A stretch of DNA of 20,963 nt from Candidatus Sigynarchaeum calidifontis (GCA_030587475.2 JAUQYZ020000103.1:1-20963); one strand, 5' to 3'; positions 3,076 to 20,963 are shown, counted from the first letter of the stretch. Numbers and translations: made by a program. The notes: a model not told the origin generated them from the letters alone.

Positions 3076-3099
3076 GCACCGGCGTGCGAGACCAACCAT

Positions 3100-3172
3100 A
3101 GCTCGATGGTGTAGCGGCCCAGCATCTGGGGCTCTGAACCCCGGGACGCAGGTTCGAATCCTGCTCGAGCTA
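3100..3172 (+). tRNA. tRNA-Gln(CTG), intronless, CCA not encoded
   Basis: Acceptor stem AGCTCGA/TCGAGCT plus discriminator A; anticodon arm TGGGG-CTCTGAA-CCCCG; T arm GCAGG-TTCGAAT-CCTGC. The A1:U72 pair is typical of archaeal tRNA-Gln. A T-rich tract follows. Confidence 0.96.
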
Positions 3173-3255
3173 TATCTATTTTTATCCATCATCGAATTCC
3201 TTGCAGAATGCCGGGTTATTATAACGAAAGCGATTAAAACAATGGATCCAGCACG

Positions 3256-4116: not shown

Positions 4117-4219
4117 CGTCGCCGCACGTGCGAGCTGGTTTAAAATAAAGTTTTTTTATAAGGCAGCCTCATCCCACATGCACGTATCCTTTTCCTCAAC
4201 TCTCCGAAAGTCGAGCGCC

Positions 4220-4963
4220 ATGTCCGAAATCGAGAAGATTTGCATACATTTCAAGGAAACTGGCAAGGTTGGTAATTCTGGGCAAACATTATATTACTGC
4301 GATGCTCGCGATTTCGTCCTCGGCGAGGATGCAAAGATATGCTTCGTTTGTAGTGAATACAAGCCAAGCAAGACTGATTTTGACGATAAAATCCGCCAGA
4401 ACATAATAGATTATCTCAACGGGAAGCGGAAACGAGAAGCAGTTCGCTGGAAGGGTAGCAAGCGGTCCACCAGGTCTTCATCATCACGCAAGTCCCGCGA
4501 TGATTACGACGAAGACGAGGAAGAAGAATCCGAGGCCGAGGAGGGCGAGGAAAGCGAGGAAGCCGAGGATGGTGACGAGGCCGAAGAAGGCGAGGAAGCC
4601 GAGGAGGCTGACGAGGTCGAGGATGCCGACGAAGGCGATGAATTTAGGCATAAGAAAAAGAAATCCGAGAAAAAGCCGGTCGCCAAGAAAAATACCACCA
4701 AAACCACGAAAGCATCGAAGCCAGCCAAGGAGATCGCCCTCGAGAAAGATGATCTTGAACTGTACGAGCTTATCAAGAGCAAGGGTGACGAGGGCATCAT
4801 CCAGATGAATATCAAGGATGAAAGCAAATTACCACCCAGCAAGATTTCCAAGATCATCTTGAAACTCAAGAATGCCGGGCTAATCGTCAAGGAGAATACC
4901 AAGATAAAGGACGCCAAGGGAAAAAGCATCGTCACGAACTTGATCAAGGCGGTAAAGAAATGA
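4220..4963 (+). CDS. Protein with N-terminal Cys4 domain, basic-acidic-basic linker and C-terminal RPC34/TFE-beta-like winged helix (247 aa)
   Basis: ATG 4220 lies downstream of TTTTATAA (~4153-4160). Cys at residues 8, 27, 41 and 44; long D/E tract; LYELIKSKGDEGIIQMNIKDESKLPPSKISKIILKLKNAGLIVKE fits a winged-helix pattern. Confidence 0.8.
   Translation: MSEIEKICIHFKETGKVGNSGQTLYYCDARDFVLGEDAKICFVCSEYKPSKTDFDDKIRQNIIDYLNGKRKREAVRWKGSKRSTRSSSSRKSRDDYDEDEEEESEAEEGEESEEAEDGDEAEEGEEAEEADEVEDADEGDEFRHKKKKSEKKPVAKKNTTKTTKASKPAKEIALEKDDLELYELIKSKGDEGIIQMNIKDESKLPPSKISKIILKLKNAGLIVKENTKIKDAKGKSIVTNLIKAVKK
4535..4642 (+). repeat. Twelve degenerate 9-bp coding repeats encoding (small residue)-[DE]-[DE]
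   Basis: AEE GEE SEE AED GDE AEE GEE AEE ADE VED ADE GDE; units such as GCCGAGGAG and GGCGAGGAA. Confidence 0.85.
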
Positions 4964-7017: not shown

Positions 7018-7104
7018 AGCAGCATTCGTGCAGCGAATGCGAAATGCATTCGTGCATTCGTGCTGCTACAGGCATGCATCCAGCTGGCCGGCGGTGCCGG
7101 CCAG
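7018..7104. repeat. GCATTCGT micro-repeat/hairpin cluster plus 9-bp GC hairpin
   Basis: GCATTCGT three times, inverted CGAATGC once, enclosed by AGCAGCA/TGCTGCT; CTGGCCGGC-GGT-GCCGGCCAG at 7084-7104 next to an A-run (oligo-T on the minus strand). Confidence 0.6.
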
Positions 7105-7194: not shown

Positions 7195-8760
7195 TTAGGG
7201 GATGACATTCCTTTTTTTTCTTTCCCGCTGCTTGTTGATTTCTTCGAGCACGCGCGTGAATTCCTGGTAATCAGAGATGAGGACATCTTTTGCATCGATG
7301 ATTTTATTGCATTTCGCGCGCTTCAAGGCCATCGATTTCATCTGCACCGCCTTGGCCATGAGCAGCGCCTCTTCGATGCTGTTTCCCACGGGGATATTTG
7401 CCTCGTTCAAGGGTTCCTTGATCATCTCGTACTTCGCGAGCCACGGCAGGTACGTGATGATCGGCTTTCGGTAGAGACGAACCACGCTAGCAATGCGGCT
7501 TCCCAGCGACATTGAGAGCATGGGTGGATAGGGCAAGATCAAGAGCAAGACGAGCTCGACTCGCGGGTTCTTCATGAGCACCTCGAGCACGTGAACCACG
7601 TCATCGTCGCTACAGCTGCCCGTGAGGTCGATCGGGTTGCCTAGTCCAGCGATATTCTTCACGGCCGGGCTCAAAGCTTCACGAATGCTATTTATCTCGT
7701 CCTCAGAGAAGTCCAGGAGACCTAAATGGTACCTCTCAGAGATATCGGTCGAGAGCACGCCGTGGCCACCCGAAACCGTTATGATCGCCATGTTCCCGCT
7801 GAAAGTGTGCATGAAAAAGGGCTTGTTTTTGCCCGCGAGCAAGGTGAAGGCCTTGACATAGGCAACGAGCTCTTGTTCCGTGTTTACGTTGATGATCGAG
7901 AACTGCTTCAGCGCTCCTTCGAGGACCAGCTCGTTCGACGCGATCGCGGCCGTGTGTGAGGACGCTGCCTTCATTCCCCGCTCGGATTTCCCGCCCTTGA
8001 GCATCAATATCGTCTTATTCGTGTCGCGGCTCTTGAGCAAGAACTCCCGGCCGCGCTGGTTCGCAAATCCTTCGAGATAGAACCCGATGACTTCCGTTTG
8101 CGGGTCGTGCTCGAAATAATCGAGCATCTCCACCTCGTCAAGCACGGCCTTGTTGCCCAACGAAACCGCTTTCGAGATGGCAATGTCACGCTCGTAATTC
8201 TTGCAAAAGAACTGGTCAAGCAGCACTCCGCCAGACTGGGAAACGATGCCCATGTTGCCTTTCGACTTTGGAACAACGAATCTTTCGTTCGGGATGATGA
8301 TCGTGTTGATGTGGGGGGGATTGTAAACGCCAACGCAGTTAGGACCGATGAGCGGCACGCCGTGGTGGAAAGAAAGCCTGGTCATCTCGTCCTGGATTGC
8401 CTTTCCTTCCGGGCCGGTTTCCGCGAACCCGCCGGAGATGACGATGAATCCCTTCACACCGAAATCGATCGCATCCTTGAAGACCGGCAGCGTATCGCTG
8501 GCCTTGAGGCACATGACTGCCACGTCGATGTTTTTCGGGATGTCGAAGAGGGTCCTTTTGAGTTCCGTGCCCTCGATCGAGCCACCCTTTGGATTGATGC
8601 CAAAAACCTTCCCAGACGTGTAGCCCTTGATGATGAGATTCCGCTGGTAAATGATGAACCCCGGGTTGAATAGATTGGACGTGCTCACTCCGACGACCGC
8701 TATCGTGTCGGGTTCGAATATCGGCTTGAGATCAAACGAGGAATCCATGCTCATCGTCAC
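7195..8760 (-). CDS. NDP-forming acyl-CoA synthetase (acetate-CoA ligase) alpha-subunit-like protein
   Basis: CoA-binding N-terminus (FEPDTIAVVG, INPK), ISGGFAE, IGPNCVG, SQSG, SLGNKA, YLEG, LKGG, catalytic ASSHT, NPIDLTG. No ATP-grasp beta domain. Alternative ATG starts at 8754 and 8748. Confidence 0.9.
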   Translation of the reverse strand: MTMSMDSSFDLKPIFEPDTIAVVGVSTSNLFNPGFIIYQRNLIIKGYTSGKVFGINPKGGSIEGTELKRTLFDIPKNIDVAVMCLKASDTLPVFKDAIDFGVKGFIVISGGFAETGPEGKAIQDEMTRLSFHHGVPLIGPNCVGVYNPPHINTIIIPNERFVVPKSKGNMGIVSQSGGVLLDQFFCKNYERDIAISKAVSLGNKAVLDEVEMLDYFEHDPQTEVIGFYLEGFANQRGREFLLKSRDTNKTILMLKGGKSERGMKAASSHTAAIASNELVLEGALKQFSIINVNTEQELVAYVKAFTLLAGKNKPFFMHTFSGNMAIITVSGGHGVLSTDISERYHLGLLDFSEDEINSIREALSPAVKNIAGLGNPIDLTGSCSDDDVVHVLEVLMKNPRVELVLLLILPYPPMLSMSLGSRIASVVRLYRKPIITYLPWLAKYEMIKEPLNEANIPVGNSIEEALLMAKAVQMKSMALKRAKCNKIIDAKDVLISDYQEFTRVLEEINKQRERKKRNVIP

Positions 8761-8783
8761 GATTCCCGTTACCGATGCGTCAC

Positions 8784-9614
8784 CTAAAAATCATCCCCCT
8801 TCTCGGCCTCGGATCGTGGATCAGCGTCTTCGGGTTCTAGTGGGCGCTTTGACCCTTTGAAGAGATCACGTGCATTAATTTTGTACTTCTTGAAGAGTAA
8901 CGCGATGATTATCGCGATGCCAGCTCCAAGGGACAAGAATATCAATGAGATGACGAAGAAAGTGAAGTCCGAATTTGGATCGTACATGGACTCGAGAAAC
9001 ATGTGGAACTTGGCCGTGCCGTTCTGGTAGGTCATGAGAACGTCGTCCACGATTCCCTTGTCATTGAAATCGATGCGGATACGCTCGTCCGGTGCCGTCT
9101 TGTTTCTTGCATCATAGATCAAGGCGCTTTGATCCAGCGTGATGTTCCAATTCGTGTCATTGCATCGGGACGCGTATGCGATCTTGAATTGCCACATGGG
9201 TATGGCAAGATCCATTGGAAGCACGAGCATGTTATCCCCGATGGCATCGGCGGTGAGCGAATATACTTCCGTTTGAACGTCGAATTCCGCGTAGGATGTC
9301 AATGCTTTCATCGTCAACCATTGCTTTTCTCCCAGGTTCAGCTCGCGGCTGAGATTGCCGATCAGCTTTCGGGCGATTACAGTCGAGCCAGACAAGACGG
9401 GACGTATCTCGATAACGGTGAATTTCATCCTGGTATTCCGTTCAAAGATCACGGGTGATTTCTCGATGACCCACGTGAAGGACCATCCTGCCCCGAACAC
9501 CCATGGCTTCTGATCGTTTTCCTCGACACAAATACGCGCACTTCCAGGGCTAAAACACGAGCAAGCGACCAGACATGCGATCGCACACGCGATCACGGCA
9601 TTTTTTCGGAACAT
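8784..9614 (-). CDS. Secreted, single C-terminal-TM membrane-anchored hypothetical protein
   Basis: Signal-peptide-like N-terminus MFRKNAVIACAIACLVACSC, beta-rich body, TM segment FTFFVISLIFLSLGAGIAIIIALLF followed by KKYK. Confidence 0.8.
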   Translation of the reverse strand: MFRKNAVIACAIACLVACSCFSPGSARICVEENDQKPWVFGAGWSFTWVIEKSPVIFERNTRMKFTVIEIRPVLSGSTVIARKLIGNLSRELNLGEKQWLTMKALTSYAEFDVQTEVYSLTADAIGDNMLVLPMDLAIPMWQFKIAYASRCNDTNWNITLDQSALIYDARNKTAPDERIRIDFNDKGIVDDVLMTYQNGTAKFHMFLESMYDPNSDFTFFVISLIFLSLGAGIAIIIALLFKKYKINARDLFKGSKRPLEPEDADPRSEAEKGDDF

Positions 9615-9743: not shown

Positions 9744-12305
9744 ATGAGCCGTCAGCCCGCTAGCCAGGGCACAGGCATGCCATCGCTCGATGCCGTCATC
9801 ACCGGCTTGAGGCCCGGGGATAACGTCGTCTTTCAAGTGGACAAGGTACTCGATTATATGCCATTCGTGCGATTGTTCTGCGATGATGTTGTAAAAAACG
9901 GTCACAAGCTGATTTACTTTAGGTTTGCAAGCCATGCGCCTCTCTTGCCTGGAGACATCGCTGCGGATCGCCACGACCTCAATCCGGCGGCCGGCTTTGA
10001 GGCGTTCATCGGTTCGATCCTTTCGATCATCGAGCGAGCGGGCAAGGGTGCTTGCTATGTGTTCGATTGCATGTCCGATCTTGCCGCGGATTGGTACAGC
10101 GACATAATGCTTGGTAATTTCTTCCAATTGACATGCCCGTACCTGTTCGATTTCGATACATTCGCGTACTTTGCACTGGTTAGGAATCGCCACGCATCCC
10201 AGGTTATCGAAGCCATCCAAAACACGGCCCAAGTTATCATTGACGTGTATCACCACGGTGACGGCATCTACGTCCATCCTATCAAGGTGTTCAAGCGCCA
10301 CTCGCCGACCATGTACATGCTGCACGAGCTCCGCGGGAAGGATCTCGTCCCGATAACGCGGAGCAGCGACGTGGCCCGTTTCTTTTCGGACACGCTCCAT
10401 TCACGGTTCGATTTTACCGAGACACGCGTGGACACGTGGAAGGTAACTCTCCAGCACGCGAGCACCGTGATCGATCGCATGACCGCCGGGATAATATCGG
10501 CCGAGGAGAACGAGCGCGTGCAACAAAAACTTCTGCGGATGTTCATCGCGCGAGAACAACGGCTGCTCGAGCTTGCCTCAAAATATCTCCACTTGCCGGA
10601 ATTACTCTCCATCGGAAAGCGCATGATCGGTACTGGCTTGATAGGTGGCAAGGCGGTGGGGATGCTCCTGGCTCAGGCCATAATAAACAAGAAGGCCCCT
10701 GCACTGGCTGCAAGATTAGAGCTCCAAGATTCCTTTTTCATCGGATCGGACGTGTTCTACACTTACCTGGTGAGAAACCACGCGTGGTGGGGCCGGCGAA
10801 GGCTGTCAAACCCGGCCACCTTCTTGGAAGGAATTGAAGAAACCAGGTTACGCATCCTGGAAGGCAGTTTTCCGCCTTATATCATCGAACAATTTGTCCA
10901 CATGTTAGACTACTTCGGGCAGAGCCCCATCATCGTTCGATCCAGCAGCTTGCTAGAAGATGCGTATGGAAATGCTTTTTCTGGTAAATACACGAGTATT
11001 TTTTGTCCGAATCAAGGCACTCCCGAACAGCGTCTCGCGAAATTCGTCGACGCGGTCAAAGCCATCTATGCAAGTACCATCAACGAAAATGCACTTGCGT
11101 ATCGGCATTCTAGGAATTTGCTAGATAAAGACGAGCAGATGGCCTTGCTTGTCATGCGCGTGTCCGGCGACGTGCATGGGAAGTATTTTTTCCCTCAAAT
11201 TGCTGGCGTGGGTTATTCTTTTAATCCATTCGCGTGGAGCCGTGACATCGATCCCAAGGCGGGTCTTCTCCGCCTTGTTTTTGGTCTCGGCACGCGCGCA
11301 GTCGACAGGAAGGATGATTACACGCGTCTCGTGGCGTTGAACAATCCTACCGAGAGAATTCTCAAAAGCGAGCAAGCCATCAAGAAATATTCTCAAAAGC
11401 GGGTGGACATGCTCGATCTCCAAGAAAATACCTTCATCTCCCCTTTTTTCTACAAGGTATCGAGCGAGATACGGGGCAGCCTTCCCATGCACCTTTTCTC
11501 GGCGACGGGCGATGTGCTCACACTGGACGAAGTTCTCAGCAAAACCGATTTCCCGAAGGACATGCGCCTCTTGCTCAAGATACTAGAAGATGCATACTCG
11601 AATCCCGTCGATATAGAGTTCACGGCGAACTTTTCCAGCAATACCGAATATTCGATCAACGTGCTCCAATGCCGGCCATTCCAGGTAAAGCGTGAAATAC
11701 ACGTCGTCGATCGGCCAGGGGAGATCCACGAGGATCAATTGATTTTCAAGACAGAGGGACCAATCATCGGTACCAGCATGGCGATTGCCATCGACATCCT
11801 TGTCTACGTGGAACCCGAGCGATACGGGCAACTTGCAGAAAGAGACAGGTATCACATCGCGCGTTCGATCGGGCGGATCAACGCGCATCCATCTTGCAAG
11901 GGGCGGAAGATCGCGATCCTCGGGCCGGGAAGGTGGGGAACTGCCATGTCGTCCCTTGGCATCCCCGTGACTTTTTCCGAGATCAGCAACGTGTCCATCA
12001 TCGGCGAGATCGCAGAAATGCACCAGGGCCTCATCCCGGATGTCTCACTCGGTACGCATTTTTTCAATGATCTAGTCGAATTCGACATCCTCTATTTTGC
12101 CTTGTATCCGGGGAGGAAAGGATATATTATAAGAAAAGACACGATCGATCACCTTCCGAATTCACTGGAAGACCTCGTGGATGATGCAAGCAATCTTCGC
12201 GATGTTTTAAAGGTCATCGATACTAAGCGCTGCGGGGACCATCGCGTGATCAAGATGTACATGAACTCGATGGAGCAGCGGGGCTTTTGCTATTTGGAGC
12301 TTTGA
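9744..12305 (+). CDS. PEP synthase/PPDK-type ATP-grasp domain protein with N-terminal degenerate KaiC/RecA-like domain (about 853 aa); not a complete PEP synthase
   Basis: IGGKA, PIIVRSSSLLED..AFSGKY, FGLG..AV, DIEF, LQCRP. N-terminal TGMPSLDAVITGLRPGDNVV without a Walker A. C-terminal GPGRWG..SLGTHFF. No pyruvate-binding TIM barrel. The track start at 9705 overlaps the TATA box. Confidence 0.88.
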   Translation: MSRQPASQGTGMPSLDAVITGLRPGDNVVFQVDKVLDYMPFVRLFCDDVVKNGHKLIYFRFASHAPLLPGDIAADRHDLNPAAGFEAFIGSILSIIERAGKGACYVFDCMSDLAADWYSDIMLGNFFQLTCPYLFDFDTFAYFALVRNRHASQVIEAIQNTAQVIIDVYHHGDGIYVHPIKVFKRHSPTMYMLHELRGKDLVPITRSSDVARFFSDTLHSRFDFTETRVDTWKVTLQHASTVIDRMTAGIISAEENERVQQKLLRMFIAREQRLLELASKYLHLPELLSIGKRMIGTGLIGGKAVGMLLAQAIINKKAPALAARLELQDSFFIGSDVFYTYLVRNHAWWGRRRLSNPATFLEGIEETRLRILEGSFPPYIIEQFVHMLDYFGQSPIIVRSSSLLEDAYGNAFSGKYTSIFCPNQGTPEQRLAKFVDAVKAIYASTINENALAYRHSRNLLDKDEQMALLVMRVSGDVHGKYFFPQIAGVGYSFNPFAWSRDIDPKAGLLRLVFGLGTRAVDRKDDYTRLVALNNPTERILKSEQAIKKYSQKRVDMLDLQENTFISPFFYKVSSEIRGSLPMHLFSATGDVLTLDEVLSKTDFPKDMRLLLKILEDAYSNPVDIEFTANFSSNTEYSINVLQCRPFQVKREIHVVDRPGEIHEDQLIFKTEGPIIGTSMAIAIDILVYVEPERYGQLAERDRYHIARSIGRINAHPSCKGRKIAILGPGRWGTAMSSLGIPVTFSEISNVSIIGEIAEMHQGLIPDVSLGTHFFNDLVEFDILYFALYPGRKGYIIRKDTIDHLPNSLEDLVDDASNLRDVLKVIDTKRCGDHRVIKMYMNSMEQRGFCYLEL

Positions 12306-12584
12306 TATTGGGTGAACCGTTGGCCGTTCCGCCTTAGCTAAAACCGGCTGGTATGAACCTTGCCTTGTAAACTCACCTCACCAAATGAAACTTTTTGCAG
12401 TCGAGACATTACGATCTGGCATTTGGTCGAAGCAAAGATGAATGAAAACGATGTTTGTGCATCTGTTCAGTTACATTAAAAGAATAATCATTGTTTCTCG
12501 ATATTTTTGCATTTTATGAATCCAGCATTTATAGCTGCATGCTAATTGCCAAGCCAAGTTTTTTCAATCGATGATGGTTAATGG

Positions 12585-12654
12585 TTCATGAAAATCGCAC
12601 ATCCGGCCTTGCGGCAAGACTGCAATCCAAGTATGGATGCACGATTTTCTTGAA
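12585..12654. promoter_or_regulatory. Long imperfect inverted repeat upstream of glnA
   Basis: Arms 12585-12604 and 12635-12654 are complementary at 17 of 20 positions; inner hairpin TTGCGG-CAAGA-CTGCAA. Confidence 0.6.
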
Positions 12655-12687
12655 TAAAATTACTATAACATCCCAGGTGCAATATAC

Positions 12688-14010
12688 ATGGTATCCAAGG
12701 AAGACGTACTGCAAATCGTTAAAGAAAAAAATGTCGGGTTTATTCGAATATGGTTTACAGATGTTCTTGGTTTCTTGAAAAGCTTCGCCATCACTCCTGC
12801 TGAATTGGAGAGTGCATTTGAAGAGGGCTTGGGCTTCGATGGGTCGTCCATCCGGGGCTTTACAGGGATCGAGGAAAGCGATGTCGTCGGGTGGCCAGAC
12901 GCATCGACGTTTCAGATCTTGCCCTGGCGGCCGAAAGAACAATCGGTCGCCCGGATGTTCGCGGACATAACCAACCCCGATGGCACGCCCCTGGAGGCTG
13001 ATCCGAGGTACGTGCTCAAGAAGATGCTCAAGAAAGCGGCTGACAAGGGATTCACGTTCTATATCGGGCCGGAGCTCGAGTATTTCTACTTCCAGAACGA
13101 TGAAAGCACCGACTTCATCGAAAAGGTCGGTTATTTCGACCAGTCATCCAAGGCTTTCGATATCGAGCTTCGCCGGGAGACCGTGCTTGCCTTGGAAGGC
13201 ATGGGCATCCAGATCGAGAAGTCTCACCACGAGGTGAGCCCATCCCAGCACGAGATCGACATGCACTACGCGGACGGCTTGACCATGGCTGATTGGACGA
13301 TCACGTACAAGCACGTGGTGAAGGCAATCGCCCAGAGATTCAACGTCTCGGCCACATTTATGCCAAAACCAGTTTATGGAATCAACGGCAGCGGCATGCA
13401 CTGCCACCAGTCGCTGTTCACGGGCAACAAGAATGCATTCTGGGATCCAAATGACGAGTATCACTTGAGCAAGGTTGGAAGGTCTTACATCGCTGGCCTG
13501 CTCAAGTATGCCCCTGAATTCGCGATCATCACGAACACATGGGACAATTCCTACAAGCGCCTCGTGCCTGGATATGAGGCTCCCGTGTACCTCGCGTGGG
13601 CTCGCCGCAACCGCTCGGCACTGGTTCGGTTGCCCATGTACAAGCCCACCAAGGAAAAAGCGACCCGGTGCGAGTTGCGATGCCCGGATCCATCGTCGAA
13701 TCCGTATCTCGCGTTCACGGTCATGCTCGGTGCCGGTTTGAAAGGTATTGAGGAAAAACTCGAGCTCCCGCCACCCGTTGAGAAAAACATCTTCCATCTC
13801 GGGTGTGACGAGCGGAATGGCCTGAACATCAAGGAGATGCCGGGCAGCTTGTTGGAAGCGATCAACATCGCGGAAAAGAGCAGTTTTCTCAAGGATGCGA
13901 TTGGTGAAAGCGTTTTCAATTATTACATCACCAACAAGAAGTGTGAGTGGGATCGATTCCGCACCGCTGTCACGGACTGGGAAATCAAGGAGTATCTGCA
14001 CATGCTATAG
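12688..14010 (+). CDS. glnA: Glutamine synthetase type I (GSI-alpha-like, 440 aa)
   Basis: FDGSSI, GPELEYF, HHEV, QHEI, TFMPKP, GSGMH, NSYKRLVPGYEAP, NRSALVR, ELRCPD, NPYL; AGGTG upstream of the ATG. Confidence 0.97.
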   Translation: MVSKEDVLQIVKEKNVGFIRIWFTDVLGFLKSFAITPAELESAFEEGLGFDGSSIRGFTGIEESDVVGWPDASTFQILPWRPKEQSVARMFADITNPDGTPLEADPRYVLKKMLKKAADKGFTFYIGPELEYFYFQNDESTDFIEKVGYFDQSSKAFDIELRRETVLALEGMGIQIEKSHHEVSPSQHEIDMHYADGLTMADWTITYKHVVKAIAQRFNVSATFMPKPVYGINGSGMHCHQSLFTGNKNAFWDPNDEYHLSKVGRSYIAGLLKYAPEFAIITNTWDNSYKRLVPGYEAPVYLAWARRNRSALVRLPMYKPTKEKATRCELRCPDPSSNPYLAFTVMLGAGLKGIEEKLELPPPVEKNIFHLGCDERNGLNIKEMPGSLLEAINIAEKSSFLKDAIGESVFNYYITNKKCEWDRFRTAVTDWEIKEYLHML

Positions 14011-14040
14011 CCGCACTTTTACATTTTCTTTATTCTCTCG

Positions 14041-14076
14041 ATGAAAAATCGTGAAAATCCAAGTATGCACGAATTT
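14041..14076. repeat. Shortened copy of the glnA-upstream hairpin element
   Basis: Exact 12-mer AATCCAAGTATG at both 12624-12635 and 14056-14067, with shared ATGAAAA(A)TCG and ATGCACGA flanks. Confidence 0.6.
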
Positions 14077-14569
14077 GCTCATTCACAGCTAGAAGGACTA
14101 GGATATCAACAAGCAAATATTGTAAACAGAGGAATGAGACGCGTGCTAGTTCGTAAATAGCATTCATATTCCACGCTATTTTATGAAAGCATCGATCCAC
14201 GTTTTAATTCCTTTTGAAACCACGAGATCCTTATTGATAGACATGTACAAGGATAAAAGGGCGACATCCATTACTTGATCCAGGGATCGGTTATCGATGA
14301 AGTGCATGGCGTTCCTACGGCGTTTGCATCCACGACCGACATTTTTATCCACGTCGGTTAATAGGCGGTCAAGCATCCCTCAGATTACAGCATTACGATC
14401 GATGCCTTGATTTGGGCGAAAAGAGGGATGGACGTCAAGGGCTTCGTCGTGCGATAAATGGCATGTATTTTGCCGTGATACAATGTCTTCACCCCGGATC
14501 TGGCGGGCTCTCCTACCGAAACACGCGTTTCCCGATATCGAACACCTCGACAACAAGGCTTAATAAGGC

Positions 14570-16072
14570 ATGAACGATACGAATGCGCGATCGGGTCAAG
14601 ACAATCTTGAACAAGACAAGCTCCGCGAGCAGTGCGGCGTTCTCGCCATTATTTGTGACGATCCGTGCATGAACGTCGCGCAATTCATATATACGGGCTT
14701 GATGGCTCTCCAGCACCGGGGGCAAGAAGCAGCGGGCATTGCAGTGATGCGGCCGGGTCGTCCCATCTTCCGGTACCGGGATGTCGGCCTAGTGAACGAT
14801 GTCTTGAGCCCTGAAAAGATAACGGGTTTGAGTGGAAATATCGCGCTCGGGCACGTCCGCTATGGCACGGTATCCTCGTCAACCGACGTGGCATGCGCGC
14901 AGCCGTGGCTCTTCCAATCCAACGAGATCAACTTTGCAATCGTCTTCAACGGTACCATCACGAATTATTCAGCTCTGCGGAAAAGGCTCGAGGAGAATGG
15001 CCACGTGTTCACGACATCCGTCGATACAGAAGTGATATCCCACCTGATCGCGGATATACACAAGAAACACGGTGAATGGGTAGAGATTATCAACATCCTC
15101 ATGAAGACCCTGGATGGAAGCTATGCAATCGTGATAATGACGGAGGCAGGGGATCTTTTCGGTTTCCGTGACCCTCGCGGGTACAAGCCCTTGTGCTATG
15201 GTGAATTCACGGCGGGCAATGGCCACGAGACACGTCTCCAGATCCTTGCATCCGAGACGTGCGCGATCGACGCGCTTTCCGGAAAGGTTATGGGCCATGT
15301 CAAGCCCGGGGAAATCGTACATGTGCAAATGAACGAGTCATTGCGCTCGGAATCCACGATTAACTGCGACCGGCATGCCTTGTGTCAATTCGAATTCGTT
15401 TATTTCGCGAACAACACGTCGGAACTCGATGGTATCTCGGTCTACGAGACCCGCAAGAAACTCGGGGCCAACTTGTTCAAGATCGCGCCGGTCATGTCGG
15501 ATAACGCGATCGTCGTGCCGGTACCCGATTCTGGCCGATCGGCAGCGCTTGGTTATGCTCAAGCGTCTGGCTTGCCCTTCGAGGAAGCACTCATCAAGAA
15601 CCGGTACATCACGCGCACGTTCATCATGCCCGGTCAAGACAAGCGGCGATCGCTCGTGAACTTGAAGCTCTTTCCAGACAAGAAGACGCTTAAAGGGAAA
15701 GATGTCATCTTGATCGACGACAGCATCGTGCGGGGAACGACGACCGAGAAGATCGTGCGATTGCTCAAGAACAACGGCGCCCGCTCCGTCCACTTGCGCA
15801 TCTCTTGCCCACCGATCAAGTATCCTTGCTTCATGGGCATCGATTTCCCGACTCGCCACGAGCTGATAGCGTCGAACCATTCCGTGGACGAGATTTGCCG
15901 AATGCTCGGTGCAGACTCCCTCGCATACCAAACGATTGACGGGTTGATAGAAAGCATCGGCCTGGGAAAAAATGATCTATGCATGGCTTGCCTCGATAAA
16001 ATATATCCCCTCACGAGCCCGCCATGCATGGAATTGCTGGAGGAAACCTTCACGAAGAACCGTCAATCGTGA
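14570..16072 (+). CDS. purF: Amidophosphoribosyltransferase (Fe-S, propeptide type)
   Basis: Propeptide then CG nucleophile (REQCGV), QHRGQE, GHVRY, PVPDSG, DDSIVRGTT; Fe-S ligands CQFE, CFMG, CMAC. Confidence 0.96.
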   Translation: MNDTNARSGQDNLEQDKLREQCGVLAIICDDPCMNVAQFIYTGLMALQHRGQEAAGIAVMRPGRPIFRYRDVGLVNDVLSPEKITGLSGNIALGHVRYGTVSSSTDVACAQPWLFQSNEINFAIVFNGTITNYSALRKRLEENGHVFTTSVDTEVISHLIADIHKKHGEWVEIINILMKTLDGSYAIVIMTEAGDLFGFRDPRGYKPLCYGEFTAGNGHETRLQILASETCAIDALSGKVMGHVKPGEIVHVQMNESLRSESTINCDRHALCQFEFVYFANNTSELDGISVYETRKKLGANLFKIAPVMSDNAIVVPVPDSGRSAALGYAQASGLPFEEALIKNRYITRTFIMPGQDKRRSLVNLKLFPDKKTLKGKDVILIDDSIVRGTTTEKIVRLLKNNGARSVHLRISCPPIKYPCFMGIDFPTRHELIASNHSVDEICRMLGADSLAYQTIDGLIESIGLGKNDLCMACLDKIYPLTSPPCMELLEETFTKNRQS

Positions 16073-16159
16073 GAATGGTACTTGTTGGAATTCTTGGAAT
16101 GATAAAGGTCCCGGGAAATCTTCGTGAATAAGGTTGGATCCAACATTTCACGGCGTGCA

Positions 16160-17248
16160 TCAATCATCGTCTATAGATTGCTTTTTACTCGCCTTTTCCG
16201 ACGCCTTGAAGGCCACGCCGCCACCTGGGCAGGAACGGCAGGATCCATCCTTGTGCTTCTCGCACGCGGGATCGCCAGGCTTGAAATAGCGCGTCGGGAA
16301 GAATTCCGGCTCCACGATGCGCGTCGATATCAAGATCTGGGAATCTTTCACGCCCGGCTCCGTCTTGGGCGAGCACGTGTTGATGAAGGCTTGCAATTCG
16401 TCGATGCCCTCGGCGATGATGCCGTAGATCAGGTTGTATTTCCCGACCGACTCGAAGCAGAACAACATGCGAGGGCAGTTCTTGTAGAGCTCGATAATAC
16501 GTTGGGTGTCGACGGCGGAACCGGTTTCGAGCAGCATGATCCCTATAACTACTTTGTATTTCTGGAGATTCATGGTCGCCTGGATGCGAATCGCGTCGGC
16601 CTCCAATAACTTCGTGATACGATTCTTCACTCCGACGTGTGAATAGCCTTGCTTGTCCTCGACCGACAGCTTCTCGCCAATGTCGACGAGCTTCATCCGC
16701 CCGTCCTGGGATAGAAGGCTAATGATTTGCTTGTCAACCGGATCAATATCCGAGAGTGTTCCCCGCTCCTTGATTTTCTTTTCCAGCTGCTCGTAGTTCT
16801 CCATGATGGCTTTCACGCGTGCATCGAGGAGTTGTTTTTTCATCTCCTCCTTGGTCTCGATGGTCACCTTGAGCCGCGTGCCGATGTCACGGATGAGAAA
16901 TGTCTCGAACTCGAGAAAAGGCAAATCCTGGAGGTAGAAGATGTCTATCTCGAGACGCTTGCCTGCAATGTCGATAGCCGTGTTTAACTTGTACGGCGAT
17001 TCCTTGAAGATGGCGGTCTTGTAGACCTTCCCGCCATATTTGATTTGGCTTGTCGTCACTTCCGGATACTGCATCGCCTGCGGGATAAGCATGACGACTT
17101 CCTCAAGTAACTGCTCAACGGATTCCGCATCGTCAGCGATCTTGGAGATGCCGTACAAGCAGTTGAGTTCCTTGACACGCTCCTTTAAATCGTGTTCGGA
17201 TTTCTCGAGGCGTTCGATAAGCTTCTTTTGAGATTCCACGGTCGTCAC
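16160..17248 (-). CDS. Lrp/AsnC-family regulator with N-terminal GAF-like sensor and C-terminal Cys tail
   Basis: ERVKELNCLYGIS..IPQAMQYPE N-domain; IDPVDKQIISLLSQDGRMKLVDIGEKL..VKNRITKL HTH; CPRMLFCFESVGKYNL RAM-like domain; PACEKHKDGSCRSCP tail. GTG start. Confidence 0.88.
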   Translation of the reverse strand: MTTVESQKKLIERLEKSEHDLKERVKELNCLYGISKIADDAESVEQLLEEVVMLIPQAMQYPEVTTSQIKYGGKVYKTAIFKESPYKLNTAIDIAGKRLEIDIFYLQDLPFLEFETFLIRDIGTRLKVTIETKEEMKKQLLDARVKAIMENYEQLEKKIKERGTLSDIDPVDKQIISLLSQDGRMKLVDIGEKLSVEDKQGYSHVGVKNRITKLLEADAIRIQATMNLQKYKVVIGIMLLETGSAVDTQRIIELYKNCPRMLFCFESVGKYNLIYGIIAEGIDELQAFINTCSPKTEPGVKDSQILISTRIVEPEFFPTRYFKPGDPACEKHKDGSCRSCPGGGVAFKASEKASKKQSIDDD

Positions 17249-17680
17249 TTAAGTTTTGTAACCAATGATCAACTGTAATTTGCCAGATATGAATAAGATA
17301 TAAAGTTTTTCCGATATTTTTTCAAACATTATTTATATCTTAATGACAATTCCATCATCGACTATCTACCTTGATGAAAGAAATGTAACCCGGAGGTACG
17401 CAGTGCGTGTCCTATCGTGTAGCAGCCTTATAGCATTAACGGAAATGGAAATAATCCCGTGGAACGCGCTTTCTTTTTTACCAAGGAATACGACAAGTTC
17501 ATTTCCTTTTTGCACATCTGGAACCTTTCTAGTTTCAAATCACCAGAAGATTCCAGCATTCCTTTACATTTTGTAGGTTTTTTAGACTCCTGGCAAATCT
17601 TATAAGGGCGATGAAATTACTTAATTTTTATTGGTGATTTTCGCATATTGCGCAAGATCGTGCATTCGCAGTGATCTATA
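17249..17680. promoter_or_regulatory. AT-rich divergent promoter region (regulator / pyrG)
   Basis: 432-bp non-coding gap with TATA-like ATATAAA (~17298-17304) and CTTATAAG (~17599-17606). Confidence 0.5.
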
Positions 17681-19348
17681 ATGACAAAATTCGTTTTCAT
17701 TACCGGGGGTGTTATGAGCGGTATTGGAAAAGGCGTGACCACTGCTAGCATAGCGAAATTGCTCCAGTTCAGGGGTTACAAGATTTCTATTGTCAAGATC
17801 GACCCGTACTTCAACATCGATCCGGGCACGCTATCGCCCATCGAGCACGGCGAGACGTTCGTCACCGAGGATGTCTGGCAGTACACGCCTTTTAATCAAT
17901 GCAATGACACGTTCAAGATCGCCGAGCTCGACCAAGATTTCGGCACTTACGAGCGGTTCATCGGAAAAAACATCCATCCATCCCACAACATCACGTCTGG
18001 CCAAGTTTTCATCGAGATCATCTTGAAAGAACGCCACGGCGAGTTCCTCGGCAAGACCGTCCAGCTCATTCCCCATGCCACGGACGCTATCAAGGCGCGC
18101 TTGCATCAAATCGCCAAGGAAGAACAACTCGAAGTGCTCCTCGTCGAGTGCGGTGGAACGGTCGGGGACCTGGAAAGCATGATCTTTCTCGAAGCGTTCC
18201 GCCAGATGCGACTCGAACACGAGGGCGACACGTGTCTCATCCACGTGACTCTCGTCCCGTACAACGAGTCGGTGGGCGAGCTCAAGTCCAAGCCCACGCA
18301 GCATTCCGTGCGGCAGCTGCAATCCGCGGGGTTACAGCCCGATATCGTGATATGCAGGAGCGCGATCGCGCTGGATGATGCCTCCCGAAAAAAGATCTCG
18401 CTGTTTTGCAACGTCGCCCCGGGCCGGGTTATATCGAACCCCGACATCGGCACGATATACGAGCTGCCGCTCATATTCGAAAAACAATCGCTCGGGGATT
18501 CCATATGCTCGATCTTGAGACTCCAGCCTCGCCTCATCGAATTCTCCCCTGTCGAGAATTACTCCGAGTGGAAAAAGCTAGTCGAATTATACAAGATACA
18601 TCCTAATGGCATCATCAACATCGCAATGCCGGGCAAGTACACGAAAAACAAGGATAGTTACGTGAGCATCAACGAGGCGCTCAAGCACGCGGGTGCACAT
18701 AACGGTGTTGAGATCAAGATCAACTGGCTCGACACGGAAAACTTGGACAGCATATCCGAAATCGAAAAGAATGACGGCGTTTTGCTTACCCCTGGCTTTG
18801 GCGGCCGGGGTGTCGAGGGCATGATCGCGGCAGCCGATGCGGCGATTGCCAAAAAAATCCCATATCTAGGCATCTGCTATGGATCGCAGTTGCAGTTCAT
18901 CGCGTTGTGCCGGCGTTTCCTTGGTTATGCCGATGCGAACACGACCGAGATCGACCCGAAAACACAGCATCCCGCAGTCGACATGCTCACTGATCAACGG
19001 AGTATCAACATGCTTGGCGGGACCATGCGGCTCGGGGCGCATGCGATATATATCAAGCAAGGTACGCGATTGCACGATGCATACAAGAAAGACGTGATAC
19101 ATGAACGGTTCCGGCACCGCTTTCACATAAACAACGACTATGCAGCGCAACTAGGACGACATGGTCTCGTCATATCCAGCACGGACAAGTCTGGCGAGAT
19201 CATCAACTCGATCGAGATGGCGGGCGAGCAGTTCTGCGTCGGCGTCCAATTCCACCCCGAGTTCAAGTCCCGGCCATGGGCCCCGTCACCCATTTATGAT
19301 GCCTTCGTCAAGGCGTGCAAAGCATATCGAGATAGGTCTCGTGCGTGA
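17681..19348 (+). CDS. pyrG: CTP synthase (divergent)
   Basis: GGVMSGIGKG, KIDPY.NIDPGT.SP.EHGE, YERF, GGTVGD.ES, KSKPTQHSV, GKY, GICYG (Cys nucleophile), GGTMRLG, QFHPEF. Confidence 0.96.
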   Translation: MTKFVFITGGVMSGIGKGVTTASIAKLLQFRGYKISIVKIDPYFNIDPGTLSPIEHGETFVTEDVWQYTPFNQCNDTFKIAELDQDFGTYERFIGKNIHPSHNITSGQVFIEIILKERHGEFLGKTVQLIPHATDAIKARLHQIAKEEQLEVLLVECGGTVGDLESMIFLEAFRQMRLEHEGDTCLIHVTLVPYNESVGELKSKPTQHSVRQLQSAGLQPDIVICRSAIALDDASRKKISLFCNVAPGRVISNPDIGTIYELPLIFEKQSLGDSICSILRLQPRLIEFSPVENYSEWKKLVELYKIHPNGIINIAMPGKYTKNKDSYVSINEALKHAGAHNGVEIKINWLDTENLDSISEIEKNDGVLLTPGFGGRGVEGMIAAADAAIAKKIPYLGICYGSQLQFIALCRRFLGYADANTTEIDPKTQHPAVDMLTDQRSINMLGGTMRLGAHAIYIKQGTRLHDAYKKDVIHERFRHRFHINNDYAAQLGRHGLVISSTDKSGEIINSIEMAGEQFCVGVQFHPEFKSRPWAPSPIYDAFVKACKAYRDRSRA

Positions 19349-19352
19349 TCGA

Positions 19353-19390
19353 TTTTTTTTTACGATAATGAAGAAAGAAAAGAATATTTC
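19353..19390. terminator. Bidirectional terminator between convergent pyrG and glutamate synthase genes
   Basis: T9 at 19353-19361 (+) and an A-rich AAGAAAGAAAAGAA tract (pyrimidine/T-rich on the minus strand). Confidence 0.55.
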
Positions 19391-19393
19391 TGT

Positions 19394-20963
19394 TCAATAA
19401 CGACCCGAGAAGATCTGGTCCTTGACCTCTTCAAGATCGAGTGTATCCTGCCGCTCGACCCCGATATTCCACGTTTTACAGACTTCGTATGCGTTGTCAG
19501 ATATACATGCAATGTCACGTCGATCGATCAGGTTGAGCTTGAACTTGCGGACGCCCGCGAGAAGTTGCTTGAGGCCCGTGCCGAGGCGGTTCGTGAAATA
19601 ACTATAAACTCCCATGGCGCCACCAGATATTTGCTTGCCCGGGTACTTTCGCTTGAGCTCGTCGGCAACGATAAATGCCTCCTCCATCGTGAGCGAGGCC
19701 GGGTCCTTGGCCTTGTCAAAACCAAGGGCTTCCAGCATTGCCTTCGTGACCGAGTGTTCCTTGATAGACTTTTCGACGAAGGTGCCTTTCATAGCCGCTG
19801 TGATGGGCGCCCGAGCCATGGCTATGCACGTGACGTACGGCGCGCCCATCGCGATGGCCTTGAACATGTGGGTCTCGTTGGCGAGGCCGCCGGCGATCGC
19901 GATGGTCGGGATCTTGGCGCTGGGCGTCTTGTGCTTGATCATGTCGAGGCAGCCCGTGACCAACGCTTCGAGGTAGACGGTCGGGATGGAACCCTCGTTC
20001 ATCATCGTGACCGGGGACATGCCGGTGCCACCACCCGCGCCGTCGAACGTCATGCCGTCGACCTTGCCCTCGACACCGAGGCGTATAATCCACGCCGTTG
20101 CCGAGGGGCGATACGCGCCGGTCTTGATAAAGAGGTTTTTGATGCCCATAGCTCGGACCTTGTCTAGGCTTTCGAGGAAGGCCTCGGTTGACGTGATGCC
20201 CACGCGCGAGTGGCGCTCGAAGTCCATTATGTGTCCCGACTTGTATTGTTCGATCACGTCCGGGTTGAACGGGTCGGGGATGACCAGATAGCCGCGCTTG
20301 GCGAGAAGCTGGGCGCGCTCGAGCGATTCGAGCCGCACCTCGCCTCCGATGGCCTTGGCACCTTGCCCGAATTTTTCCTCGAGGCTCTTTACCTCGAGCT
20401 TGCTCGTGACGTACTCGAACACGCCGAGGCGCGTATCCTCGACGTTTCGCTGGATGATGATGTCCCCGTTCTTGCCATCCCAGAATTCTCGATACGTGTT
20501 CACGCGGAATTTCATGTCCTCCGTGTCGACGACGCGAGGATACTTGTTGCCGTTCTCGAACTTGGCATTTGAGTCCATGCCACACACGTTTTCGCCGACC
20601 GTTATGGAGCAGCCTGACAAGGCCGCACCATGAGCCAGGCCTATCCAGTTCCGCTTGGCGACGTAGGTCGACCCGAGACCCGCAATGACGATCGGCAGCT
20701 TTTGCGGGATATTGCCCCATCTCGTCGTGATGTCCGCGTTGGGGAAGATCGCCTTGTCCATGTCCTCGTCGATGCCCTTGGCTCCCCGGACCTCGAACTG
20801 GATCTGGAAGTCGCCGAAGGAGAGGCCGTAATCCTTTGGCGTGCCTGCGGTTGAATCGCCGAAATATTCTCTCAAGGGATACAAGGTCTCACGACCTCGA
20901 AGGGCCGACTTGCTGACTTCGCAGAACACGGGACAATCAGCGATGCAGATCGGACACAAGCCC
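19394..20963 (-). CDS. FMN-binding glutamate synthase family protein (stand-alone domain 2, COG0069-like); 5' end beyond the window
   Basis: Frame is open to the right edge (..GLCPICIADCPVFCEV). GLGST, VGENV, KFGQGAKAIGGE, IKTG, DGAGGGTGMSP, AGG, MARA. Confidence 0.9.
   Translation of the reverse strand, partial: GLCPICIADCPVFCEVSKSALRGRETLYPLREYFGDSTAGTPKDYGLSFGDFQIQFEVRGAKGIDEDMDKAIFPNADITTRWGNIPQKLPIVIAGLGSTYVAKRNWIGLAHGAALSGCSITVGENVCGMDSNAKFENGNKYPRVVDTEDMKFRVNTYREFWDGKNGDIIIQRNVEDTRLGVFEYVTSKLEVKSLEEKFGQGAKAIGGEVRLESLERAQLLAKRGYLVIPDPFNPDVIEQYKSGHIMDFERHSRVGITSTEAFLESLDKVRAMGIKNLFIKTGAYRPSATAWIIRLGVEGKVDGMTFDGAGGGTGMSPVTMMNEGSIPTVYLEALVTGCLDMIKHKTPSAKIPTIAIAGGLANETHMFKAIAMGAPYVTCIAMARAPITAAMKGTFVEKSIKEHSVTKAMLEALGFDKAKDPASLTMEEAFIVADELKRKYPGKQISGGAMGVYSYFTNRLGTGLKQLLAGVRKFKLNLIDRRDIACISDNAYEVCKTWNIGVERQDTLDLEEVKDQIFSGRY

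Follow-up and report, generated by a model that had tools for sequence, protein, structure and literature searches.

Overall organization of the locus

Here we describe a locus of Candidatus Sigynarchaeum calidifontis (GCA_030587475.2, JAUQYZ020000103.1) that occupies positions 9744–20963 of the window, the whole 20,963-nt stretch of DNA that was analysed. It comprises six genes, in the order PPDKN, glnA, purF, GAF-Lrp, pyrG and a gene for a GltB-like FMN-barrel protein, together with an inverted repeat upstream of glnA. The intergenic spacers measure 382, 559, 87, 441 and 45 bp, and two of the six genes (GAF-Lrp and GltB-like) lie on the opposite strand; on account of these spacers and mixed strands, a single-operon reading was rejected. 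The arrangement is no assembly artefact, because the gene order is identical in three other assemblies. The locus is likely a nitrogen gene island whose two accessory proteins, PPDKN and GAF-Lrp, are tied to nitrogen metabolism; their regulatory mechanism we infer.

Three of the genes encode clear glutamine enzymes. The 440-aa product of glnA (12688..14010, + strand) is a type I-alpha glutamine synthetase (GS) by TIGR00653 (484.8 bits, cut-off 429), with Gln-synt_N (PF03951, 93 bits) and Gln-synt_C (PF00120, 410 bits) domains. Among solved chains it is closest to 8ufj, 8s59 and 8tfb at ~490 bits (491 to 8tfb and 8s59, which we take to be from Methanosarcina mazei), followed by 4lnf at 445 bits, against 258 bits for 1f1h-type GS; we assume that 4lnf and 1f1h represent the archaeal/Gram-positive and the enterobacterial GSI-beta enzymes, respectively. 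Judged from these sequence matches, GlnA is a GSI-alpha, nearer to the GS of archaea and Gram-positives than to enterobacterial GSI-beta. The region of residue 367 reads KNIFHL at what is presumably the site of the adenylylated Tyr in Escherichia coli GS, in agreement with the first-pass annotation, which had noted that this Tyr is lacking. The other two enzymes are the amidophosphoribosyltransferase PurF (14570..16072, + strand; 500 aa; TIGR01134, 423 bits, cut-off 350) and the CTP synthase PyrG (17681..19348, + strand; 555 aa; PRK05380, 666 bits, cut-off 308).

The sixth gene (19394..20963, − strand) is cut by the window end; the full-length protein, seen in L102, has 548 aa and a CxxCxxxCxxxC motif at its N terminus. 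It is annotated at source as 'FMN-binding glutamate synthase family protein', but its 40-bit match to PF01645 is partial (profile positions 185–302 of 369), NCBIfam gave no match and no adjoining GATase_2 or GXGXG gene was found. The true three-subunit GOGAT of Ca. S. calidifontis is encoded on another contig (C6:26486-30110), with an FMN subunit 91% identical to its counterpart in L095. By its profile matches the product of 19394–20963 is thus no canonical GOGAT subunit, only a distant FMN-barrel relative. Of the enzymes that the earlier claim takes to make or spend glutamine, GlnA, PurF and PyrG are confirmed and the proposed glutamate synthase subunit is not. The GltB-like protein is ~72% identical across Asgard archaea, with homologues close to PPDKN or glnA in six of the genomes and loci compared (G010, L145, L185, L182, G014 and G020).

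Domain structure of PPDKN

PPDKN (9744..12305, + strand; 853 residues, 853/866 aa) matches PPDK_N alone (PF01326, 149.5 bits), which bears out the report of a dikinase-like protein among the glutamine genes. Its model has three domains: a KaiC/RecA-like domain without a P-loop (pseudo-KaiC, residues 1–218), a PPDK_N ATP-grasp domain (~260–650) and a C-terminal swivel-like domain (~655–853) with GPGRWGT and GTHFFND motifs that are invariant in a 30-sequence alignment (A1). The invariant histidine of GTHFFND, His772 in the 853-aa numbering (codon 12057..12059, + strand), is a candidate phospho-acceptor.

The AF2 model of PPDKN (pLDDT 85) was compared with solved structures using VIA-align. It matches rifampin phosphotransferase (RPH; 5hv3) at Z 25.5; 399 residues align, whereas the ATP-grasp domain of 5hv3 alone gives 281. 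Further matches are PEP synthase (2ols) at Z 23.9 over model residues 266–853 and 5hv6 at Z 22.2. Full-length RPH and PEP synthase align up to PPDKN residue 850–853, adding ~80–120 residues past the ATP-grasp domain, and a swivel-like C-terminal domain is supported by these predicted folds. Residues 1–218 match KaiC CII (Z ~20, rmsd ~3, ~200 residues), and the model supports a KaiC/RecA-like fold for this domain. The Walker A P-loop (GxxxxGK[ST]) is absent from it: the position reads GLRPGDNVVFQVDK, and the family consensus there is GxRPGDNxVWQVDS.

The swivel domain of PEP synthase and PPDK carries a TSH motif. PPDKN has neither this motif nor a Pfam match (E ≤ 0.001) to the phospho-His swivel domain PEP-utilizers, a pair of absences that we counted against the island explanation. 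Nor is there a Pfam match to the PEP/pyruvate TIM barrel (PEP-utilizers_C), and the model leaves no place for one because 853 residues leave no space beyond the three domains.

Structure and distribution of GAF-Lrp

In GAF-Lrp (16160..17239, − strand; 359 aa) an N-terminal coiled coil and GAF-like domain (~5–140) are joined through a long linker helix to an AsnC-type HTH and a RAM domain; the Cys-rich tail that follows has C326, C334 and C337, conserved in a second alignment (A2). Foldseek matches include the Lrp/AsnC structures 2dbb, 7fby, 2cg4 and 8q90 and the ST1022–glutamine complex; the PF13404 score (25.8 bits) lies just below the cut-off of 27, and the RAM module matches 2zbc (Z 11.9, rmsd 1.7). 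According to its predicted structure, the protein is an Lrp/AsnC regulator with an AsnC-type HTH followed by RAM. The N-domain aligns with the GAF domains 3p01 (VIA-align Z 12.3, rmsd 2.4, 129 aa) and 3cit (Z 11.4); more than 20 GAF entries score Z 9–11, and the matches include many phytochrome, Nlh and PtsP GAFs. The sequence gives no Pfam GAF match, and the modelled domain is compact, with four strands only; the GAF assignment is supported by the predicted fold, and an extra N-domain on this Lrp, first described as sensor-fused, is confirmed. GAF domains of the NifA, PtsP and Nlh type sense 2-oxoglutarate or glutamine. Histidine kinases as well as LuxR and sigma-54 regulators carry this N-domain too.

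A search of 400 phylum genomes placed GAF-Lrp (family f1) in a few Asgard lineages only. A central nitrogen gene lies near it in four of nine lineages, in a different gene order in each, and the context is unrelated to nitrogen in the other five; the latter count weighs against the island explanation. In the closest relatives GAF-Lrp has MFS or hydrolase genes on one side and FKBP on the other.

An inverted repeat upstream of glnA

An inverted repeat, AAATCGnnCAT-N34-ATGnnCGATTT (12592..12647, unstranded), lies 41–96 bp upstream of the glnA ATG. The same arms, 34 nt apart in each case, stand upstream of orthologous glnA in G001, L193 and L258, which with Ca. S. calidifontis makes four lineages, and no second copy occurs in the 5-Mb genome at ≤1 mismatch. 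The shared operator that the first-pass annotation envisaged on the glnA, purF and pyrG promoters is not supported: no complete shared motif was found at purF or pyrG, and the full element occurs at glnA only. This restriction, together with the chance that the element is an RNA, was also counted against the island explanation.

The element is either an operator or a 5′-UTR hairpin. A cis-acting RNA hairpin to which a metabolite or protein binds, and which controls glnA independently of GAF-Lrp, is a tentative reading. It is favoured by the position of the element, with a conserved T-rich box on one side and the ribosome-binding site on the other, by the long hairpin into which it folds in all of the first three lineages (folding z −4.0, −2.4 and −2.0) and by an inner stem that varies in sequence among lineages and still pairs in each. 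However, covariation is weak and follows no clean pattern at the central 'nn' or in the inner stem (3–4 sequences), no Rfam family matches, and the strict arms with their fixed 34-nt spacer suit a two-site operator equally.

Known nitrogen regulators

As first annotated, genes for PII, Amt, NrpR and GlnE are all missing from the window and 9744–20963 contains no perfect NrpR box (GGAA-N6-TTCC); the window's single match, at 2050, is at chance level. In the Ca. S. calidifontis genome, PF01995 (NrpR) gave no match and GlnE was not found; PF00543 (PII) gave no match in the 89%-complete assembly. The step from these absences to a PII-less lineage fails, because relatives carry amt-glnK beside orthologous glnA and the sole amt gene found here ends at the edge of a contig (C212). 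PII occurs in the same genus and adjoins orthologous glnA in G001, G002, G005 and L258, with Amt inside the same hub in relatives, and its absence from Ca. S. calidifontis is doubtful. Since relatives have PII inside the same hub, PPDKN and GAF-Lrp would supplement PII control and not supplant it.

Conservation of the gene neighbourhood

PPDKN was surveyed at 80 species loci, which span more than 15 phyla, with ~12.6 kb of flank, taking gdhA, gltBD and glnA as central nitrogen genes. At least one lies in the flank at 46 of these loci (58%, where ~3.4% is expected, a ~17-fold enrichment) and within 600 bp at 32. The neighbours are glutamate dehydrogenase (GDH) at 37 loci, GltD at 11, GltB at 9 and GSI at 4, and PPDKN often adjoins gdhA or gltD tightly and in the same direction. 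GDH is thus the usual partner, and the proposal of PPDKN as a modifier of GS is not supported. PurF, PyrG and CarAB are each near PPDKN in ≤4% of the loci; both this scarcity and the predominance of GDH count against the island explanation. Characteristic orders are NadE-GltB-GltD-PPDKN-CarA-CarB-PurF-PyrG in Omnitrophota and Amt-PII-NtrC, GSIII and PPDKN-GltB-GltD in Fibrobacter. GDH adjoins PPDKN in Lokiarchaeia, two closed genomes included, and at the Asgard PPDKN–GDH loci an ADP-forming acyl-CoA synthetase is kept to the left of PPDKN and NfnAB-like genes follow GDH; in these amino-acid-fermenting archaea the GDH may be catabolic.

Only a single species was found to have the exact gene order. 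The sister species (G001) has GlnA-PurF-PyrG together with GXGXG and Glu_synthase (true GOGAT), and its set is split into three parts on three contigs, PPDKN lying with gdhA while an MFS transporter and an Rce1-like gene accompany GAF-Lrp; the single-species order and this dispersal are further points counted against the island explanation. Nearly the whole gene set lies within ~27 kb in one other Asgard lineage: the Sigynarchaeota-type region (L258, L095 and an ENA contig) comprises PurF, PyrG, Amt, PII, GlnA preceded by the inverted repeat, NadE, a 60% identical GAF-Lrp, a P-type ATPase, GOGAT, CCG and PPDKN. Smaller sets occur on a Hodarchaeota-labelled contig, L185 (GlnA, PPDKN, GltB-like, orf, GAF-Lrp), and in L193 (GlnA>GAF-Lrp<GlnA). 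In the test of neighbourhood conservation set beforehand, the exact cluster was thus confined to one species, whereas PPDKN and GAF-Lrp recur beside central nitrogen genes far above chance. Because the gene set recurs elsewhere in other orders, both proteins probably belong to nitrogen metabolism.

Proposed mechanism and alternatives

We favour, at somewhat better than even confidence, a supra-operonic nitrogen island in which a glnA-purF-pyrG core and three nitrogen-recurrent genes work together as follows. The core, which exists in the genus, would have been joined by a recent rearrangement to PPDKN, the GltB-like FMN protein and GAF-Lrp. GAF-Lrp would control transcription locally, at glnA and perhaps at the divergent pyrG, binding DNA as an Lrp-type multimer; its candidate sites are the inverted repeat at glnA and half-sites close to purF and to pyrG. 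A ligand of the 2-oxoglutarate or glutamine type, bound in the GAF and RAM pockets, would convey nitrogen status to it. PPDKN would be a dikinase-type enzyme whose ATP-grasp domain loads His772 of the swivel-like domain, the phosphate then passing to an acceptor that the KaiC-like domain, devoid of a P-loop, would hold, and its output may act on the glutamate node (GDH, GOGAT and GS). Such a system would work beside PII/GlnK without substituting for it.

For PPDKN itself, a regulatory or protein-directed role comes close to an even prospect, that of a small-molecule enzyme is a substantial lesser possibility, and some other function is unlikely. As a complete alternative, PPDKN could be a metabolic dikinase whose small-molecule substrate belongs to the glutamate, 2-oxoglutarate or NADPH node and is bound by the KaiC-like domain, with GAF-Lrp alone being regulatory. 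We regard this as possible, on the unlikely side. The more than 7800 homologues share ~50% identity across bacteria and Asgard archaea and a mean column identity of 61%, values typical of core enzymes, and the tight, co-directional placing beside gdhA or gltD would suit an enzyme. To our knowledge, moreover, the characterised relatives (PEP synthase, PPDK, RPH and HpeI) all act on small molecules or glucans. However, ammonium assimilation has no known missing step, PPDKN has no recognisable substrate barrel, and its varied partners (GDH, GOGAT, GS and PII/Amt/NtrC clusters) fit a controller better than one pathway step. Improbable is a chance or housekeeping juxtaposition of six independently expressed core genes, recently brought together by rearrangement and under no common control, PPDKN serving GDH and amino-acid catabolism and the Lrp regulating another target such as the flanking MFS transporter: the species-specific order, long spacers, mixed strands, the lack of a complete shared motif at purF and pyrG, and, in the closest relatives, the MFS/hydrolase and FKBP neighbours of GAF-Lrp and the PPDKN then GDH-NfnAB order would agree with it, but independent re-clustering in differing orders in L258/L095, L185 and L193 is hard to obtain by chance, and nitrogen genes are enriched ~17-fold around PPDKN across phyla.

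Comparison with known systems

The PII/GlnK–GlnE/GlnD and NrpR systems provide models of post-translational and transcriptional GS control for the island that we favour, but neither PPDKN nor GAF-Lrp is homologous to them. GAF-Lrp resembles the haloarchaeal Lrp proteins encoded beside glnA in its gene position and HTH–RAM fold (Halobacterium salinarum OE3923F; Haloferax mediterranei Lrp, 8q90); in H. salinarum this adjoining Lrp gene activates glnA (PMC2894021). It differs from them in its N-terminal GAF-like sensor, long coiled-coil linker and Cys-rich tail. Sa-Lrp, which responds to glutamine (PMC3584215), and ST1022 'Grp' (2efq) are likewise RAM-domain Lrp proteins, with glutamine as their ligand; relative to these, GAF-Lrp has a second potential sensor in its GAF-like domain. 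The predicted N-domain fold is GAF-like and recalls the nitrogen-status sensors NifA and PtsP/EI-Ntr (the PtsP GAF 3trc, Z 10.1, and the Nlh1/Nlh2 GAFs 4g3k and 4g3v are among the matches), but in GAF-Lrp a compact four-strand version without a sequence-level GAF match is fused to Lrp, and neither to an AAA+ activator nor to PTS enzyme I.

PPDKN shares with RPH (5hv1/5hv3) and PEP synthase/PPDK (2ols) the PPDK_N ATP-grasp domain with its RSSSxxED...GxxFxGKY signature, and its C-terminal module can be aligned to their swivel-domain end (Z 24–26). Unlike PEP synthase/PPDK, it lacks the PEP/pyruvate TIM barrel and a Pfam-detectable PEP-utilizers domain and has GTHFFND in place of what we take to be their TSH motif; unlike RPH, it lacks the rifampin-binding domain. 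What sets it apart from RPH and the dikinases alike is a KaiC-like N-domain of its own, without a P-loop, and a genomic context of nitrogen assimilation.

Gene content of a probable nitrogen gene island

The metagenome-assembled genome of Candidatus Sigynarchaeum calidifontis (5.0 Mb, 89% complete) contains the window as one entire contig, C137; the organism shares its order, but not its family, with Promethearchaeum syntrophicum. The stretch under study comprises six genes. An 853-residue protein built of a pseudo-KaiC domain, a PPDK_N ATP-grasp domain and a swivel-like module (hereafter PPDKN; 9744–12305, + strand) is followed by glnA (12688–14010, +), purF (14570–16072, +), an Lrp/AsnC gene with an extra N-terminal domain (GAF-Lrp; 16160–17239, −), pyrG (17681–19348, +) and a GltB-like gene (19394 to the window end, −; 548 residues in full). 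Their spacers measure 382, 559, 87, 441 and 45 bp, so the six genes do not form one operon. Three further public assemblies show exactly this arrangement, which excludes a chimera. The stretch is probably a nitrogen gene island, and comparative genomics ties its two accessory genes, PPDKN and GAF-Lrp, to nitrogen genes.

The first-pass annotation had listed GlnA, PurF, PyrG and a glutamate synthase subunit. The first three pass their equivalog cut-offs, whereas the "subunit" is a 40-bit partial match to PF01645, named in the sources "FMN-binding glutamate synthase family protein", and the real three-subunit GOGAT lies on contig C6 (GDH–NfnAB is on C218). The GltB-like protein, which found no match in a PDB sequence search, occurs again near PPDKN or glnA in other loci. 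The glutamine synthetase (GS) scores about 490 bits against chains 8tfb/8s59, which we take to be the Methanosarcina mazei enzyme, versus 258 bits against the 1f1h type; it is of the GSI-alpha type, and the missing adenylylation tyrosine is thus ordinary for its class. No conserved small ORF was found in the 559-bp glnA–purF spacer, which shares only one 51-nt stretch (70% identity) with the sister species.

Several neighbouring features were also recorded. Window positions 7195–9614 hold the gene for an acyl-CoA synthetase (ADP-forming) alpha subunit of 521 residues and an unannotated 276-residue ORF, both conserved to the left of PPDKN in the genus and in the relatives at 70–77% identity; a fermentative ATP-yielding enzyme here adjoins PPDKN, a GDH-linked gene. 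A tRNA-Gln(CTG) gene (3099–3173) lies between a GTPase gene and folD, and the C terminus of a 287-residue protein (4100–4963) matches the TFIIIC B-block-binding winged helix (PF04182, 28.7 bits), a eukaryote-like domain in an Asgard genome. Past the window end in the same species, an RraA-like gene (L102:21845–22456) follows the GltB-like gene; in another lineage one is found 9 kb from a GAF-Lrp homologue (L186:19440–20027). In a 63%-complete single-contig genome, the GltB-like gene carries an in-frame TAG (G003:C1:61639–63279) and the GlnA orthologue matches residues 1–252 only (G003:C1:2435466–2436221); these defects may be pseudogenes or assembly errors.

Conservation of the gene set

The exact order is not conserved. 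In the sister species (G001), PPDKN has the same left neighbours (the 276-residue ORF and the acyl-CoA synthetase alpha subunit) and is then followed by GDH. There, glnA, purF and pyrG are contiguous on a different contig with the true GOGAT genes after them; the purF–pyrG gap is 25 bp with no Lrp gene in between, and the Lrp gene adjoins an MFS transporter gene. The gene order seen in the window is recent. The set itself does recur, and 46 of 80 PPDKN loci and four of nine GAF-Lrp lineages lie near nitrogen genes.

The metagenome contig L258 (GlnA 88% and GAF-Lrp 60% identical) reads P-type ATPase, GAF-Lrp, NadE < GlnA < inverted repeat < orf < PII < Amt, PyrG > < PurF. Its ATPase fragment runs exactly into the fragment opening L095, from the same metagenome, and Lrp, ATPase, GOGAT, CCG and PPDKN sit together on a single ENA contig. 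Together these define one region of about 27 kb containing PurF, PyrG, Amt, PII, GlnA, NadE, GAF-Lrp, GOGAT and PPDKN. A Hodarchaeota-labelled contig carries GlnA, PPDKN, the GltB-like gene, an orf and GAF-Lrp in that order, and L193, another locus, reads GlnA > GAF-Lrp < GlnA.

Genomic link of PPDKN to the glutamate node

We surveyed 80 species-representative PPDKN loci from more than 15 phyla, with fetched flanks averaging 12.6 kb in total. The 46 loci with a central nitrogen gene in these flanks (within 600 bp in 32) compare with an expectation of about 3.4%, derived from the 12 central-nitrogen loci of the Sigynarchaeum genome. These neighbours are GDH in 37 loci, GltD in 11, GltB in 9 and GSI in 4, and PPDKN adjoins gdhA, gltBD or glnA in most phyla sampled. 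In Lokiarchaeia, closed genomes included, GDH adjoins PPDKN in every orientation; Promethearchaeum syntrophicum, which is in culture, and the closed 6.0-Mb genome G031 are two carriers of this pair. An Omnitrophota locus has the order NadE–GltB–GltD–PPDKN–CarA–CarB–PurF–PyrG, and a Fibrobacter locus has Amt–PII–NtrC, GSIII and PPDKN–GltB–GltD. Few of the 80 loci have PurF, PyrG or CarAB close to PPDKN; the robust link is thus to the glutamate node, and grouping by "glutamine-spending" is seen in a minority.

The AF2 model of PPDKN (pLDDT 85) has three domains. Residues 1–218 adopt a KaiC/RecA fold (Z about 20) that lacks a Walker A motif. Next comes a PPDK_N ATP-grasp domain, nearest to rifampin phosphotransferase (RPH), HpeI and PEP synthase. 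For the C-terminal module, the alignable part of RPH and PEP synthase is their swivel-domain end: with RPH, 399 residues align for the full-length protein versus 281 for its ATP-grasp domain alone, and the PEP synthase alignment reaches model residue 853. There is no PEP/pyruvate barrel. His772 (in GTHFFND) and the motif GPGRWGT are invariant among 30 diverse members. An earlier reading of PPDKN as a phospho-His ATP-grasp enzyme is reasonable on these grounds (fold, swivel-end alignment and invariant His772), although they fall short of residue-level proof.

The family is very large (more than 7,800 matches; Asgard members are about 50% identical to those of many bacterial phyla), and databases give it no functional name, only 'PEP/pyruvate-binding domain-containing protein'. 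A PDB sequence search with PPDKN gave no match, and a literature search on the family, alone or with GDH or nitrogen, found nothing relevant. Paralogues exist: tandem copies 50–52% identical (G031:C1:5190722–5196031), a distant PPDK_N paralogue of about 1,000 residues that adjoins PPDKN in one genome (G021:C1:1588574–1594009), and another that is located elsewhere on the closed G011 chromosome.

GAF-Lrp and the glnA element

The C-terminal half of GAF-Lrp is a standard HTH+RAM Lrp fold. Its N-terminal domain, recognised by no Pfam model, matches GAF structures (3p01, Z 12.3, r.m.s.d. 2.4 over 129 residues; 3cit, Z 11.4; and many others), which makes the sensor-fused designation a reasonable one. 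This N-terminal domain also heads histidine kinases and LuxR-type and sigma-54-type regulators, and the Cys-rich tail is conserved. GAF-Lrp adjoins glnA or GOGAT in the four nitrogen-linked lineages and has other neighbours in the remaining five. Two lineages otherwise without nitrogen-gene context have a RimK/GSH-synthetase-like ATP-grasp gene no more than about 4 kb from GAF-Lrp (L084:90–950 and L195:3216–4052).

The nearest plain-Lrp homologues (31–39% identical, family f4) were considered as glnA neighbours and none adjoins glnA. More distant Lrp genes do so in three genomes (G023, G031 and G037), a weak association since each genome has several Lrp paralogues. One of these, in a closed 6.0-Mb genome (G031:C1:1645000–1660000), is divergent from glnA; after it come a receiver-domain ORF, the gene of a DUF1846 protein and pyrG.

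An inverted repeat, AAATCGnnCAT-N34-ATGnnCGATTT (window 12592–12647), lies about 25–100 bp upstream of orthologous glnA in four lineages (Sigynarchaeum, the sister species, L193 and L258), with identical spacing in diverged surrounding DNA. Allowing up to one mismatch, it occurs nowhere else in the 5-Mb genome. Its predicted structure is a long hairpin (z from −4.0 to −2.0) with weak covariation, and the element may be either a two-site operator or a 5′-UTR hairpin. Rfam searches gave no family match to the element and nothing meaningful at E ≤ 10 around glnA; at the gathering threshold only the tRNA was found in the window. All four element-bearing lineages have the GAF-Lrp gene, within 2.5 kb of the element in L193 and L258; we regard this link as a lead, not proof.

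Only half-sites, lacking significance, occur near purF and pyrG. As a shared motif, the 11-mer half-site at one mismatch occurs at chance frequency, and of 120 metagenome matches to the inverted repeat 119 were unrelated background. The 8-mer TCGTGCAT has four copies in the window, all non-coding; it was dropped as a regulon motif, having 385 copies genome-wide and no enrichment outside open frames. Separately, three tandem overlapping copies of GCATTCGTGCA occupy non-coding positions 7020–7065, downstream of the acyl-CoA synthetase gene, and the 11-mer TCGTGCATTCG from this site is also present 16 bp upstream of pyrG.

Relation to PII

No PII, NrpR or GlnE gene was found in the 89%-complete assembly. 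The first-pass observation had pointed to the lack of a PII gene in the window, but the argument from absence does not hold. The sole amt gene found in the assembly (C212:8–1225) ends at a contig edge, and its orthologue in another genome, G002 (65% identical), heads an amt–glnK–glnA operon; glnK may thus lie in an assembly gap. The sister genus has amt–glnK–glnA with the orthologous GS, PII is present in the sister species and in G005, a further genome, and amt–glnK sits inside the hub in L258. The organism probably has PII. Complementary presence of PII and PPDKN was rejected, as six of eight PII-positive relatives also have PPDKN, and the system is therefore no substitute for PII. The reported lack of an NrpR box was borne out by an operator scan, whose one match was at chance level and outside the six-gene stretch.

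Discussion

The first-pass observation was largely right and its interpretation partly so. We infer that PPDKN acts on the glutamate node as a His-dependent enzyme of the dikinase type. The role of a regulator seems slightly more likely than that of a small-molecule enzyme. As a switch, it would pass phosphate from the ATP-grasp domain to His772 and on to the pseudo-KaiC domain or a target enzyme. In some Asgard lineages it would be partnered by GAF-Lrp, reading 2-oxoglutarate or glutamine and acting on the conserved glnA element. That PPDKN is a new ATP-driven switch of this node, and that in some Asgard archaea it and GAF-Lrp make up a previously undescribed tier of nitrogen control alongside PII, is a rather unlikely combination.

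Asgard archaea are the nearest prokaryotic relatives of eukaryotes, and to our knowledge their nitrogen control is essentially unstudied. If PPDKN controls or serves the glutamate node, ammonium assimilation has a widespread participant that has so far escaped notice. The locus and its relatives supply three testable parts, PPDKN, GAF-Lrp and the inverted repeat upstream of glnA, the last offering binding assays a defined target, DNA or RNA. GAF-Lrp itself is a candidate for regulating glnA locally, and perhaps pyrG as well; as such it would extend the haloarchaeal Lrp–glnA theme by a second sensor domain.
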